A DNA stretch of 64,000 nt from an uncultured Acidobacteriota bacterium (lineage in GTDB: Bacteria > Acidobacteriota > Terriglobia > UBA7540), in NCBI GenBank assembly GCA_963804995.1, contig CAWDSK010000003.1, positions 1,440,001-1,504,000 on the forward strand. The letters are read 5' to 3'. The position numbers and the translations under genes were made by a program. The first letter of the stretch is position 1. Each line of letters opens with the position of its first letter. The notes below the pieces were generated by a model. That model saw only the letters and a program-made list of their open reading frames with translations. It was not told where the DNA came from and did not search any database. This document shows, one piece after another, positions 7,182 through 12,231 of the stretch.

Positions 7182-8548
7182 TTCCGTTGCCTTCCTGCGA
7201 TGGCGCGTTCGGTGTCCGCCTGCGCCCGCGCCAACGCTTGCTCCACCGTCACCGTCCCTGCCAATGCCGCGCTGATTTCCTGGCCGACTTCCGTGCCGAT
7301 GGCCTGAAACTCCGGAATGCCCACGTACTGAATCCCCACGTAAGGAACCGGCAAGGCGCTGGGCTTCCGATAATCCGCGTTCAGAATCCCCTCGCGTACC
7401 AGCGTTGCAAAGGGGGCGGCGCGCTGGTATTCAGGATTATCGTAAGTGGATTGCCGCGAGCCCGGGGGGACCCACAGCCAGCCATACCGCTCCCCCACCC
7501 GGACAATGTAACTGCGGCTGGTTGCCCACTTGACGAACTGTTTGGCGAGGGCGCTGCGCGGGGACGAGGTGGGAATGGCCAGCGCCCAGCTCCACACCCA
7601 GGCCGCGCCGTTGGGAAATCTGGCGACGGGCATCTTGGCGAAACCCGTGGTCGTGGCGACGCGGCTCTGGCGCGAGTCCAGAAAATAGGGCGCGGCCGAA
7701 GTAGCGTCCACCCACATGGCGCAGTTGCCGTTGGCGAACAGGGCGCGGTTTTCGTTGTAGCCGTTGGTAATGGCCCCCGGCGGCCCGTAGTTGCGCAGCA
7801 AGTCGACATAAAAACTTACGGCTTCAATCCAAGCCGGACTGGTGAGCTGCGGTTGCCAGTCAAGGTCGAACCAACGGCCGCCAAACGTGTGGACAAGGGT
7901 GCTGACGTAGCTTGTGTTCTGCCCCCAGCCGGGCTCGCCGCGCAGGCAGATGCCGTAGACGCCGTGCTCCGGGTCATGCAGCTTTTCGGCAAACTGGCAG
8001 ATCTGCTCGTAACGGGGCGCGAGGGGCATTTCGATCCCGGCCTTTTGGAACAGGTCCTTGCGGTAGTAAGTAAAGCTGCTCTCTCCATAAAAGGGCGCCG
8101 CGTACATTTTCCCTTGATACGAAAGGCCCTGGCGGATCACCTGAAAGATGTCGTCATATCCATAGTCCGCGCCCAGGTCGTCCACAGCAACCAGCCAGCC
8201 GCGCTCTCCCCAGAGGGGGGCTTCGTAGGATCCGATGGTAATTACATCAAAGGTGTTGCTGCCGGTAGAAATATCTACCGTCAATCGTTGCCGCAGGACG
8301 TTCTCGCCCAGGACCACCCAATTCAATTTGACGCCATTCTGCTTTTCGAATTCCTTGGAAAGCTGCTGCATCAGGATCATGTCAGCGTTGTTCACGGTGG
8401 CAATGGTCAGCTCCGGCCGAGAAGGCGGCGGATAGAGAATCCACGCCAGCAGCGCCGCGCCCAGCAACAGTCCAAGTTTTTTCCAAGTCAGATTTGCGGA
8501 TGCCATGTCATTGTGATCGGCAGTCGTCCCACCCGCTGGCCAGGACAT
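7178..8548 (-). CDS. Polyol ABC transporter substrate-binding protein, SmoE/MtlE-like
   Basis: LTIATVNNADMI, ENVLRQR, PFYGESS, GICLRG.PGWG, MWVDAT, PYVGIQYVGIPEFQ; start could be 8506. Confidence 0.9.
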   Translation of the reverse strand: MSWPAGGTTADHNDMASANLTWKKLGLLLGAALLAWILYPPPSRPELTIATVNNADMILMQQLSKEFEKQNGVKLNWVVLGENVLRQRLTVDISTGSNTFDVITIGSYEAPLWGERGWLVAVDDLGADYGYDDIFQVIRQGLSYQGKMYAAPFYGESSFTYYRKDLFQKAGIEMPLAPRYEQICQFAEKLHDPEHGVYGICLRGEPGWGQNTSYVSTLVHTFGGRWFDLDWQPQLTSPAWIEAVSFYVDLLRNYGPPGAITNGYNENRALFANGNCAMWVDATSAAPYFLDSRQSRVATTTGFAKMPVARFPNGAAWVWSWALAIPTSSPRSALAKQFVKWATSRSYIVRVGERYGWLWVPPGSRQSTYDNPEYQRAAPFATLVREGILNADYRKPSALPVPYVGIQYVGIPEFQAIGTEVGQEISAALAGTVTVEQALARAQADTERAIAGRQRK

Positions 8549-8566
8549 AGCGGCCTCGCGCTGGTC

Positions 8567-8744
8567 GGCTGGCGCCCCGACGAGTCGGGGCGATTTCCCA
8601 ACCGGATTTGTGCGGGCCTGCGGCTCATCCCAGTGGGCTGATAGTACGGCGTGCGGTCGGAAAGTCTATCCGCGTCCAGCCCTTGCCTGAAGAGTGTCCC
8701 TTCGGAACATCGCAGACCCCCAAGTGCCGGGGTCTGCGCCAGCC
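8567..8744. repeat. ~180-bp REP doublet (REPIN/BIME-like), unoccupied copy of the intron target family
   Basis: Colinear with 9071-9080 joined to 10994-11170; ends cgcagacccccaagtgccggggtctgcgccagcc. Confidence 0.85.
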
Positions 8745-8772
8745 AGCGGCACTCGGATGACCATGAAGCTAG

Positions 8773-8906
8773 CCCTCTCCGTTGGGGAGAGGGTGGACCG
8801 CAACCGGCGCTTTCACCAGCCCGGGCGGGCCGGGCCTACGCCCGCCGAAGGGGCTCGGGCAATACCTAGACCACTTCGGCTTCGGCCCGCAGGCGGGTGA
8901 GGGGTC
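8773..8906. repeat. ccctctccc...gggagaggg/ggtgagggg palindromic family with nested ~63-bp insert
   Basis: Family members at ~16421-16556, 20823-20872, 21015-21147, 28494-28660, 30628-30720, 39660-39795 and 61947-62104. Confidence 0.8.
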
Positions 8907-9080
8907 ACTTCCAGGCCGGCCAGCGAACACTCGGACTTTTTTCATCAGCTTGCTCATCCGACTGCGAGCGGGAGTCTACATCACGGCGAGCACTGCTTGC
9001 AAATTCCATTCAAAGTGCCGATTATGAGCGGTGGCAACAGTACCGATGTTGGATATAACGTTGGTGTCCGACGGCTGGCG

Positions 9081-10993
9081 GTTGCGGTAGGGATACCGGT
9101 TACCCGGTACCCCCCGCACGGATCCGTACGTGCGCTGGTTAGCGCATACGGCTCTTATCTCGGATGTGTGGCGGCGAACCGTTGGGATGGCCAAGGATGC
9201 ACAACGTGCGGAGCAGGCAACCAGCAGGCCGCAAGCTTCCCCAGTCGGTCCCAGTTGAGGCGGTGGCGTTGACTGCGTTGACGCAGTTGTGTTCGCCACA
9301 GTCGGGTCAACCGTTCCCGAAAGATTCGCAGGCGGTCGAGGTTTCCCGGTACCGCGTGATAGTTGAAGTAGCCTTGCACGACCGACCGGAGCCATTTACC
9401 CGTATCCGCGATGGGATCGTGCCGACGCTGCCGGAGTTGTTGCTTGAGTTCCTGCAACTTCCCCCGCAGGCGCTTGCTGATCGTCTTCCGCTTCACGGTA
9501 AATTGCCCCCTCCGGTTCTTCCCGCTGATATGCGTGAAGCCCAGAAAGTCGAACGTCTCCGGCTTACCTTCTCCTCTCCGTTTCCGGTAAAGTTCGGCAA
9601 ACGGCCCGAACTCGATCCGGCGCGTTTTGTCAGGATGCAGTTCCAATCCAAACTTCCCCACCCGCTCCCGGAAATCCTCCAGAAAGCGGTCGGCTTCCGT
9701 CTGCGATTGGAATCCAAGGACCGTATCGTCGGCATACCGCACCACGACCACGTCTCCCCGGGCGTGCTTCTTGCGCCACGCCTGCACCCACAGGTCAAAG
9801 ACGTAGTGCAGATAGATATTCGCCAGCAGGGGCGAGACCACCGCCCCTTGTGGCGTACCCATCTCCGTCTCCGACCATTCGCCTTCCTCCCTCACCCCGG
9901 CTTTCAGCCATTTCTGGATGAGCCGGAGAATCCGGGGGTCGGCGACGCGATGCTGCACGAACTTGAGCATCCATTCGTGGGATATCGAATCGAAAAATCC
10001 ACGAATGTCCGCGTCAAGAACGTAGTTCACGTGCTTCACCGTGAGCGCGTACGAGAGCGCGTCCAGCGCTTGATGCTGGCTGCATCCCGGTCGAAAGCCA
10101 TACGAGAAGCCCAGAAAGTCTTCCTCGTAAATCGCATTGAGGATGGTGACCACGGCCTGTTGGACGATCTTGTCCTCCAGTGCCGCAACCCCCAACGGAC
10201 GTTGCCGCCCGTCGCCTTTCGGGATATACGCCCTTCGCGAGGGCTTCGCTCGGAATGCTCCGCGGTGGACCCGGCTGTGCAGATCGACGAGTCGACCTTC
10301 CAGCCCGCTTTCATACTCCTGCCACGTCATGCCGTCTACTCCCGGTGCAGCTTTTCGCTTCAAGGCGTAAAAGCTTTCCCGCAGCAGATCGACCGTTAAG
10401 TGGTGGAGCAAGGCCGTGAACTTCATCTCCCTGTGTTCCTTCGCGGCTTTCCGCACACCCGCGAGTCCCTGGGACACGCGTGCCCCGCTCTGTGTCGGGT
10501 GCGTGTTAGGCCAACGGGTGTTCTCCTTGATCAGCGGCCTTCCCTCCTCATTCTCCGCCAACGGCTTCCCGTCTTTGTTCAAATGATTCATCGGTACTGT
10601 TCCGCTGTCCGACTCCTCGAAAGCGTGCAGGCGGGCTGTACGGCCATCGCCTTTTCCCGCCGTCCGGCCACGATCTACGGCGGCCGGCGCCTCCGAGGTC
10701 TCCCGGTTCTCGTGCAGAAAGTGTCTAGGCGTGTCTGGGGTCTACGACTACGCAGGACTGTGCCGGAACTCGCGTTGGCGTCCCGGCCTCATGTTGCCTT
10801 CCGTTTAGTCTGAAAACGTCGGCGTCCTGATTGGACATTTTCGAAGCTCAATACCCAGCCCACCTATTCCCCTGTTTACGCTTCACCGTGCGCCTCACGA
10901 CGCCCAGCGCAAAACTCGGGGCCGAGTGGATCGCTGCTCCTTCCTCGTGAGAAATTTTCATTCTCTGCTTTCTGCCGGTTTATCCCGGCGCAC
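9081..10993 (-). mobile_element. Complete group II intron, 1913 nt
   Basis: 5' end GTGCG at 10993; domain V GAGCCGTATGCG...CGCACGTACGGATC and domain VI ending CCGCAAC at 9081; removing it restores a repeat matching the intact copy at 11137-11170. Confidence 0.95.
9155..10591 (-). CDS. ltrA: Group II intron reverse transcriptase/maturase, no C-terminal endonuclease domain
   Basis: APGVDG, RPLG, SYGFRPG, DIRGFFD, GTPQG..SPLLANIYL, RYADD, FDFLGF, X domain YFNYHAVPGN. Confidence 0.95.
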   Translation of the reverse strand: MNHLNKDGKPLAENEEGRPLIKENTRWPNTHPTQSGARVSQGLAGVRKAAKEHREMKFTALLHHLTVDLLRESFYALKRKAAPGVDGMTWQEYESGLEGRLVDLHSRVHRGAFRAKPSRRAYIPKGDGRQRPLGVAALEDKIVQQAVVTILNAIYEEDFLGFSYGFRPGCSQHQALDALSYALTVKHVNYVLDADIRGFFDSISHEWMLKFVQHRVADPRILRLIQKWLKAGVREEGEWSETEMGTPQGAVVSPLLANIYLHYVFDLWVQAWRKKHARGDVVVVRYADDTVLGFQSQTEADRFLEDFRERVGKFGLELHPDKTRRIEFGPFAELYRKRRGEGKPETFDFLGFTHISGKNRRGQFTVKRKTISKRLRGKLQELKQQLRQRRHDPIADTGKWLRSVVQGYFNYHAVPGNLDRLRIFRERLTRLWRTQLRQRSQRHRLNWDRLGKLAACWLPAPHVVHPWPSQRFAATHPR

Positions 10994-11170
10994 CAGACCC
11001 CGGTACTTGGGGGTCTGCGATTTCCCAACGGGACTTTTAAGGGCTTGCGGCTGATCCCAGTGGGCTGGTAGTAGGCATGCTGTCGGAGAGTCCACTTGTG
11101 CCAATCCCGTGCCGGAAGAATGTCCTTTCAGGAAATCGCAGACCCCCAAGTACCGGGGTCTGCGCCAGCC
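10994..11170. repeat. REP doublet whose left arm is interrupted by the intron
   Basis: Inverted hairpins at 10994-11024 and 11131-11170 around a spacer homologous to 8590-8710. Confidence 0.85.
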
Positions 11171-11205
11171 AGCCGCCATAATCCAGCGGACCGGGGAGAA
11201 TCGAA

Positions 11206-12231
11206 ATGCTTCGCGCCACCATGACCAGTCCGGGGAAAATCGAGTTTACGGAAGTGCCGAAGCCTTTACTCGGCGACCACGACGTTTTGTTGCGCATCCG
11301 CCGGATTGGAATCTGCGGGTCTGATATCCACGTTTATCACGGTAAACATCCGTACACTTCCTATCCGGTTGTGCAGGGCCACGAATTCTGCGGGGAGGTT
11401 GCGGAAATTGGCCCGAGCGTCCAATCCTTTCACAGAGGCGATCTGGCCACGGCTCCTCCGCAGATTGTTTGTGGCGAGTGCCTGCCTTGCCGCGAGGGGC
11501 GCTATCACATCTGCGAGCGCCTGAAGGTAATGGGGTTTCAAGCCCCGGGAGTTGCGCAGGAGTTCTTCTCCCTCCCGGAATCTGCCTTGTTGAAACTGCC
11601 GGCAGGGTTCACGCTGGAATCGGGCGCGCTGGTTGAGCCGACGGCGGTCGCGATCCATGCCGTGGGCCGGGCGGGCAGTGTGGCGGGACTGAACGTGCTC
11701 GTCCTGGGTGCGGGACCCATCGGTAACCTGGTCGCCCAGGTGGCACGGTGGCGCCATGCTCGACGGGTAGCGATATCCGACCTCAGCAACCCGCGCTTGG
11801 AAATCGCCCGGCAATGCGGAATCGAACACACCATTAATTCCCGCGAGGCTCCTCTCGAAAATTACGTGGCGGAGGTGTTCGGCTCGAATCGCGCGGACGT
11901 GGCCTTTGAATGCGTGGGGGCCGCCGAAACCGCGAACCAGGCCATCCACAACGTCAGAAAGGGTGGCACCATTGTCGTGGTGGGGGTGTTTGGCGATCGC
12001 CCCCAGGTTGACTTGGGACTGGTGCAGGATCGCGAGCTCGAGCTGCGAGGGACCTTGATGTACCAGCGCCAGGACTACGTGGAGGCGATTCGCTGCCTCA
12101 GCGAGGGAGGTATCACGGTTGGCCCCCTGCTGACCAGGACATTCCCCTTCCGCCAATACCCCGAGGCGTATGCCTTCATCGAGGACAACCGCGAGAAGGT
12201 CATGAAGGTCATGCTGGAGTTTGACGAGTAA
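11206..12231 (+). CDS. Zn-dependent sugar-alcohol dehydrogenase (MDR family)
   Basis: GICGSD, GHE, CGECLPC...C, GAGPIG; divergent from the polyol ABC operon. Confidence 0.9.
   Translation: MLRATMTSPGKIEFTEVPKPLLGDHDVLLRIRRIGICGSDIHVYHGKHPYTSYPVVQGHEFCGEVAEIGPSVQSFHRGDLATAPPQIVCGECLPCREGRYHICERLKVMGFQAPGVAQEFFSLPESALLKLPAGFTLESGALVEPTAVAIHAVGRAGSVAGLNVLVLGAGPIGNLVAQVARWRHARRVAISDLSNPRLEIARQCGIEHTINSREAPLENYVAEVFGSNRADVAFECVGAAETANQAIHNVRKGGTIVVVGVFGDRPQVDLGLVQDRELELRGTLMYQRQDYVEAIRCLSEGGITVGPLLTRTFPFRQYPEAYAFIEDNREKVMKVMLEFDE

Follow-up and report, generated by a model that had tools for sequence, protein, structure and literature searches.

A class E group II intron that occupies one position in RAYT-associated REPs of an acidobacterial genome

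Class E group II introns described from bacteria include Kl.pn.I5, which supplementary data of PMC3522654 assign to class E1, S.me.I4 from S. meliloti GR4, given as class E in PMC5894124, and Cl.be.I2 (PMC3753933). In the account of PMC3753933, EBS2 of class E is dispensable for splicing and its role in homing is only proposed, and a moderate strand bias is described for class E introns in PMC8919778. For RmInt1 and RmInt2, PMC5894124 and PMC4615759 describe the lagging-strand template as the preferred pathway; according to the same sources, RmInt2 inserts into the two inverted repeats of ISRm17 and hence always has a site on the lagging template. In a table of PMC1525189, 2 of the 9 group II intron copies of P. 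putida are marked as REP-associated. Our literature search for group II introns that home into REPs, which mostly did not extend to subscription journals, found none; the closest cases were IS elements that target REPs, the P. putida table entry, and RmInt2 in the inverted repeats of an IS.

The window, that is, the whole stretch of 64,000 nucleotides analyzed here, belongs to an uncultured Acidobacteriota bacterium (assembly GCA_963804995.1, contig CAWDSK010000003.1). It contains a group II intron (Table 1) flanked by a gene for a sugar ABC-transporter binding protein and a zinc dehydrogenase gene. The hallmarks of group II are present, namely, 5' GUGYG and 3' AY ends, the domain V AGC triad, the domain VI bulged A, and a domain I model; on the minus strand, the termini read GTGCG at 10993 and GCAAC at 9081. 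An earlier sequence-only reading had recognized this element but extended it to 11000, a figure that counts seven exon bases. The same reading had noted a reverse transcriptase (RT) without an endonuclease (En) domain, in agreement with Pfam and NCBIfam scans of the 478-amino-acid product, in which HNH is absent, RVT_1 is the sole Pfam domain, and TIGR04416 scores 342.7 bits (NCBIfam cut-off, 300). The ORF is situated in domain IV, and its stop codon extends into domain V. The generic model RF00029 stayed below its gathering score for this intron, and domains V and VI were therefore read from the fold. A scan of positions 8500-11300 found no promoter, and the exon-exon joint was not seen in four public runs (of 20 listed), which consist of contigs only and leave the locus flanks uncovered; the two RNA runs among them are mostly from relatives. 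A DNA contig of run X1 joins 9178 to 10451, corresponding to a 1272-nt deletion in the ORF, and relatives of ~650 nt without ORF were found at L169, L077 (second intron), L202, and L167, the last of which occupies the same REP site. These short relatives and the X1 deletion form are probably non-autonomous derivatives. In L014, L024, L167, L164, and L086, one or two additional nucleotides precede the usual 5' start (GAAAGCG, GTAAGCG, GATAGCG), as judged from EBS1 pairing.

Table 1. Coordinates of the intron, its functional elements, and the REPs at the locus
Feature	Position	Strand	Basis
Class E (IIE) group II intron, length 1913 nt	9081..10993	-	Ends from junction alignment of all copies; class from RT tree and Rfam
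RT/maturase ORF, 478 aa, YADD, no endonuclease domain	9155..10591	-	Pfam, NCBIfam
Domain I core, Rfam group-II-D1D4-6 (RF02005), 170 bits, E 1.9e-49	10738..10958	-	Rfam match
EBS1, CAGACU	10807..10812	-	Co-variation with IBS1
Probable EBS2, UGUCC	10833..10837	-	Register test in relatives; occupied-REP enrichment; pairs target -9 to -13
Candidate EBS3 G (coordination loop), would pair +1 C	10801..10802	-	Rfam structure; +1 is C in 39/39 copies
Domain V with AGC triad	9121..9154	-	Fold; conserved in relatives
Domain VI, bulged A at 9088 (position -8)	9084..9119	-	Fold
5' exon: hairpin part of interrupted REP; IBS1 GGTCTG 10999-10994; IBS2 region 11002-11006 in loop	10994..11019	-	
3' exon: foot of interrupted REP, CGCCAGCC (GGCTGGCG on + strand)	9073..9080	-	
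Vacant inverted partner REP of same REPIN-like pair; junction 11162/11163; disfavoured orientation	11137..11170	+	
Vacant REP of second, related REPIN-like element (about 8570-8750); junction 8736/8737; disfavoured orientation	8711..8744	+	

By sequence comparison, the intron is a member of class E, expected to work like RmInt2, and not of class C. Its RT is 57% identical to those of Kl.pn.I5 and of the disrupted class E intron of pRmeGR4b (the S.me.I4 piece), and 34-35% identical to class D, A, and CL1 references and to a C-type reference. In a quick maximum-likelihood tree of 92 proteins, made without bootstrap, with long branches flagged and with no class F row, it forms a clade with Kl.pn.I5 and S.me.I4 (SH-aLRT 99), apart from D, A, CL1, and the C-type reference. 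Moreover, the Rfam model RF02005 was matched by the window intron and by 2/2 class E references and by 0/5 other references. Class C identity was rejected, with the intron-encoded protein outside clade C and the IIC domain I models (RF02001/RF01998) not matched. Three further multi-copy RT families are present in the same genome (C9:154739, C6:296931, and C3:1126646, plus copies), with 32-37% identity and a position outside class E in the tree.

The intron splits a REP between its GTAG/CTGG foot and its hairpin, and when it is removed in silico, the left arm of an inverted pair of 178 bp is re-formed, the right arm of which is 11137-11170. Using a strict pattern, we found 216 vacant sites of this REP in the genome, where the feet on the other strand are GTAGCG (176) or CTGGCG (31), followed by the palindrome; contig C6 contains 56 matches to the pattern, as against 0 after shuffling of C6. 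An inverted partner is located within 400 bp of 13 of the 38 occupied REPs. Two RAYT genes (L011 and L012), one per REP subtype, directly adjoin intron-bearing REPs, and the encoded proteins reach 116 and 111 bits against NF047646 (REP-associated tyrosine transposase; cut-off, 80). Ten more Y1 matches, scanned as partial stretches, were IS200-like or under the RAYT cut-off. Because it combines a palindrome with a GTAG-type foot, occurs in many extragenic copies, and adjoins RAYT genes, the target repeat is identified as a RAYT-associated REP. Since the insertion parts foot from hairpin, the REP concerned can probably no longer serve as a substrate of RAYT. At 8771-8910, between the intron and the ABC operon, the window carries a second, unrelated palindromic repeat of the type CCCTCTCC...GGGAGAGGG...GGGTGAGGGG, which, judging by its very high contig depth in all four public runs, belongs to a widespread family.

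In the 7.55-Mb genome there are 40 matches more than 99.6% identical to the intron, 38 of them full length and 2 cut by contig ends, a count that may be a few too high since 4 copies touch contig ends and 2 share both flanks. The copies amount to 75 kb, or 1% of the genome, and the ORF is intact in 37 of the 38 full-length ones. RGTCYG, itself located behind a CRGAC arm, precedes all 38 copies with a readable 5' flank (at least 30 nt), and CGCYA follows all 39 copies for which a 3' flank is available. Every readable junction is at the same base of a RAYT-associated REP, so that the homing into REP arms proposed by the sequence-only reading extends to all readable junctions of the 40 copies. 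The sequences of these copies document a recent burst to about 40. The 9 variants shared among them form a mosaic, with 27 of 36 pairs failing the four-gamete test. Gene conversion or polishing noise both fit this mosaic, and the copy genealogy does not demonstrate multiple active donors. Three copies (C3:1520741, C9:287203, and C6:499684 of G000) have a 5' flank of one REP subtype and a 3' flank of the other; swapped flank types were counted in 2/21 type-A occupied against 0/135 vacant REPs, and these copies reflect either recombination between intron copies or mis-joins. In G000 C7:1-3886, two copies 69 bp apart occupy successive units of a tandem REP array, and from L064:1098-3011 onward a relative carries two intron copies head-to-tail.

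The copies at contig ends, the two with identical flanks, the mosaic variants, and the few swapped flank types could all be accommodated if introns inserted broadly and only REP copies persisted, if they were spread passively by RAYT or duplication, or if they were assembly artefacts. We nevertheless consider this set of explanations very improbable. Flanks past the REP differ among nearly all copies and comprise two subtypes and many loop variants, relatives in G002, G005, and G026 occupy the same REP site, and the harmless non-REP matches described below remain empty. Furthermore, selection would hardly yield a fixed base, a preference for EBS-matched variants, or a 28:1 strand bias.

EBS1 was assigned by co-variation in a set built from 79 related loci and same-genus genomes, which gave 62 introns with at least 16 exon bases after identical rows were merged, two false or tandem rows were dropped, four 5' ends were shifted by 2 nt, and rows failing the domain I pattern (e.g., L015-L020, L023, L105) were excluded. 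Over 26 distinct hexamers, EBS1 and IBS1 form on average 5.69 of 6 pairs, as compared to 2.86 ± 0.22 when shuffled, and none of 10,000 shuffles was as high, which settles the position; slid registers gave 2.1-2.7 pairs. The RF02005 alignment likewise sets this loop at the EBS1 stem-loop position, and EBS1 is therefore where the sequence-only reading had placed it. The loop, U-CAGACU, is closed by the stem CGUUU (10818-10814)/AAACG (10806-10802), and CAGACU pairs with the last six exon bases through five Watson-Crick pairs and one G-U pair. The U at 10813 is the delta position and is U in 62/62 relatives. Following GAAA, an unpaired segment is complementary to the exon starting at -9 or -10 (3 and 10 of 10,000 shuffles as good), and UGUCC within it is the probable EBS2, like EBS1 in domain Id, which would pair with -9 to -13 in the REP loop. 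EBS3 is probably the G at 10801 or 10802, but co-variation among relatives did not fix its position, as neither G varies appreciably; among the 42 non-REP relatives, 88% have C at +1, with exceptions.

In the folded REP, IBS1 and the splice site are within the stem, with -6 to -1 being 0% unpaired and -6 to +2 paired, and the stretch from -15 to -9 is unpaired in 37/37 targets. In the precursor RNA, the 5' exon hairpin averages -14.4 kcal/mol, against -6.3 kcal/mol for the EBS1-IBS1 duplex. Splicing must thus compete with the hairpin, and, as is evident from the burst, some copies at least succeed in this.

The copies are strongly biased in orientation. On six contigs (C3-C8), 28 of 29 copies read in the G-rich direction, as do 65 of 172 vacant REPs (p 6e-10), under a replication polarity inferred from weak skews at four-fold sites and KOPS-like octamers (C3, C4, and C6 minus; C5, C7, and C8 plus), with which the single 16S motif agrees and which the tRNA strand counts on C3 and C6 do not support. 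Contigs C1, C2, and C9, with 11 copies and 44 vacant REPs, are outside this count; when local skew was used for all contigs, the favoured direction was found in 32/40 copies versus 87/216 vacant REPs. The G-rich parental strand is the lagging-strand template. This bias fits reverse splicing into single-stranded DNA at forks, in line with the background that the sequence-only reading gave for endonuclease-minus introns. Among REPs of ideal sequence, 20/37 are occupied in the favoured orientation and 1/47 in the other. The two vacant targets that the sequence-only reading had counted within 400 bp of the intron do exist, 170 and 344 bp from its ends, but they are poor targets, since both have the opposite orientation. 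The plus strand of C5 carries 33 of the 72 tRNA genes called in the genome, probably as a tRNA array.

We then compared occupied and vacant REPs; since REP variants are related to each other, all p values for occupancy overstate. A T at -2, which makes a Watson-Crick pair with EBS1, is present in 34/38 occupied versus 118/216 vacant REPs (p 2.5e-5). The EBS2 score averages 3.76 in occupied and 3.09 in vacant REPs (p 9e-6; slid registers reach p 0.025 at best), and when the comparison is restricted to -2T REPs on the favoured strand the enrichment has a p value of 0.055. REPs with a short, 9-nt spacing account for 0/38 occupied and 31/216 vacant sites (p 0.007), and all 4 occupied sites with an EBS1 mismatch carry 4 EBS2 pairs (p 0.005). 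Other genomes show a corresponding match of guide and target. In G026, where EBS1 is CAGACC, 3/3 copies are at GGTCTG, as compared to 122 GGTCCG and 24 GGTCTG among vacant REPs (p 0.005), and relatives with EBS1 CGGACU occupy GGNCCG sites. In the latter type, a mismatch at -4 was observed in 5/6 sites, the corresponding count for vacant REPs of G005 being 10/41 (p 0.009, with non-independent sites), an excess that is not explained by best pairing. Hairpin strength was no predictor of occupancy (p 0.23 and 0.73), AA at -15/-14 was not enriched in occupied relative to vacant REPs (p 0.38), and there was no clear pattern of orientation to neighbouring genes, with the upstream gene co-oriented in 22/36 occupied and 101/214 vacant cases.

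Several of these observations would be expected if structure assisted insertion, a reading to which we give limited credence. The hairpin would extrude on the lagging template and show IBS2 and the AA motif in its loop, EBS2 would dock there first, and EBS1, as a mimic of the 5' arm, would then invade the stem; the hairpin would raise efficiency without being strictly required. The exact coincidence of the loop with -15 to -9 in every occupied target, the disuse of short REPs, the four EBS2 pairs at sites with an EBS1 mismatch, and the preference of the CGGACU type for mismatch-weakened stems all point in this direction. Against this, an IBS2 at -9 to -13, or shifted outward by one base, is what the family ordinarily has, in unstructured targets as well, short REPs shift or lose IBS2 as well, so that sequence explains their disuse, occupied and vacant hairpins have similar energies, and the EBS2 enrichment is marginal within the favoured-strand -2T REPs.

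Judged by sequence, homing into REPs is confined to a small subclade, and most relatives have another EBS1 and unstructured targets. Outside this REP family are 48 of the 62 relatives, with a mean junction fold of -3.0 against -12.0 kcal/mol; the 14 set aside by eye as REP-type include the hairpin-less L130 and L024. REP users in the tree are the window intron, L021, L022, and L094 (support 86), plus L014, and the REP sites of L105 and L167 are known by flank only. The homologues L013, L015, L016, L023, and L030, with 81-85% amino-acid identity, are in non-REP sites, and the site of L156, a same-type copy in G026, has neither the 5' arm of the REP nor the CGCYA foot. The proposal that the intron is specialized for REPs therefore holds for the copies in its own genome, the readable junctions of which are all in REPs, but not for all close homologues. 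This speaks in part against the sequence-only reading, which had named close homologues in non-REP sites as grounds for its refutation. Non-REP relatives, too, carry an A-rich tract, with 50-79% A from -15 through -12.

This survey also bears on the comparison with class C introns drawn by the sequence-only reading, in which a stem-loop would be recognized in place of EBS2. The fact that all targets in the own genome are hairpins would agree with such a specialist, as would a distant family member located six bases behind another palindrome, a long hairpin (L091:1050-1107). The idea is, however, largely refuted and hardly credible: the RT tree and the Rfam model place the intron in class E, its EBS1 comprises six bases, an EBS2 signal is present, the insertion is within the stem and not downstream of it, and only 3/42 non-REP relatives have a junction fold below -6 kcal/mol. 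Another distant family member, L164, is next to or within another palindromic repeat; together, L091 and L164 suggest repeated capture of palindromic repeats.

The remaining evidence on the role of structure comes from sites other than REPs. On the favoured strand and outside ORFs, 0/17 non-REP matches to EBS1, EBS3, and RCR are occupied, versus 20/37 REP sites (p 5e-5), with an outside-ORF filter that rests on crude ORF calls of 70-81% coverage. EBS pairing alone leaves this exclusivity for REPs unexplained, which counts for the loop-first docking described above, as does an upstream fold with z below -2 in 8/47 non-REP relatives; the hairpin-less site of L156 counts against it. Requiring AA at -15/-14 leaves 14 non-REP sites, which among the matches listed are mostly degenerate REPs. 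Since this requirement removes nearly all non-REP sites, sequence and structure models are inseparable in this genome.

Taken together, these data make it probable that this is an ordinary En-minus class E intron, the exon-binding sequences of which were retargeted to a multi-copy, non-coding REP, and in our best reading specificity is mainly a matter of sequence and the hairpin is not obligatory. The empty non-REP matches count against this reading, as does the combination of a fully paired IBS1 with an unpaired -15 to -9 stretch, which would be a coincidence under a pure-sequence model. By analogy with RmInt1 and RmInt2, an RNP of excised intron RNA and RT-maturase would reverse-splice into the REP at the stage when the latter, in single-stranded form, serves as lagging-strand template. 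EBS1 would pair with -1 to -6, EBS2 with -9 to -13, and EBS3 with +1, the protein would probably read the A-rich stretch from -15 to -12, and the nascent lagging-strand 3' end would prime the cDNA. REPs would provide some 250 harmless intergenic sites and, because they occur in both orientations, each inverted pair always presents an arm on the favoured strand.

A more far-reaching proposal, which we put forward only tentatively and regard as doubtful, is that this class E intron is a dedicated REP/RAYT parasite. It would combine the REP-loop toehold for EBS2 and stem invasion by EBS1 with hairpin-throttled splicing, host-tracking guides, and recurrent capture. In that case, EBS1 would be a copy of the 5' arm of the REP itself, the guides would shift with the REP variant of each host, the hairpin in the precursor RNA (about -14 kcal/mol versus -6 for EBS1-IBS1) would throttle splicing, and L014, L164, and L091 would represent independent REP captures. 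If true, this would be a mechanism not described for any intron class.

Retargeting to REPs, as preferred here, offers a non-class-C intron a route to very high copy number without gene damage, by capturing repeats that are replenished by RAYT, another selfish system. EBS2 complementarity predicts occupancy in this genome, whereas a homing role is only proposed in PMC3753933, and with natural target variants numbering about 40 occupied and 216 vacant, this single genome is a ready-made specificity map for class E. With IBS1 in a stable stem, the handling of structured single-stranded DNA by an En-minus RNP becomes directly testable. Forty near-identical copies of 1.9 kb are also substrates for rearrangement and break assemblies.

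Among known systems, Kl.pn.I5 and S.me.I4 share with this intron an RF02005 domain I, a length of about 1.9 kb, the lack of an En domain, and the layout of EBS1, the probable EBS2, and the candidate EBS3. In contrast to Kl.pn.I5, for which PMC3522654 gives two copies and no spare host sites, there are about 40 copies and more than 200 vacant sites here, and IBS1 is buried in a hairpin stem. The S. meliloti introns RmInt1 and RmInt2 (class D, En-minus) resemble it, as described in PMC4615759 and PMC5894124, in their multi-copy target, the use of EBS1/2/3 (with EBS2 probable and EBS3 a candidate here), a distal 5' exon base near -15, and the lagging-template bias. They differ in class (34% RT identity and a different Rfam model), in targeting an IS rather than a 30-bp palindromic REP, and in having four- to six-fold fewer copies. 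Class C (IIC) introns, inserted after terminators or in attC, are likewise En-minus and, in the account of PMC4424553, have stem-loop targets, a strand bias, and intergenic proliferation. However, they have no EBS2, their EBS1 is short, and their insertion point is downstream of the hairpin, whereas the window intron has six EBS1 pairs and a probable EBS2 and inserts into the 3' arm of the stem. Finally, the REP-targeting elements ISPpu9, ISPpu10, ISPa11, ISPsy8, and ISRm22 are comparable in that all copies are at a fixed REP base, as described in PMC1525189, but these encode DNA transposases, whereas the intron is an RNA-guided retroelement, the guides of which track REP variants.
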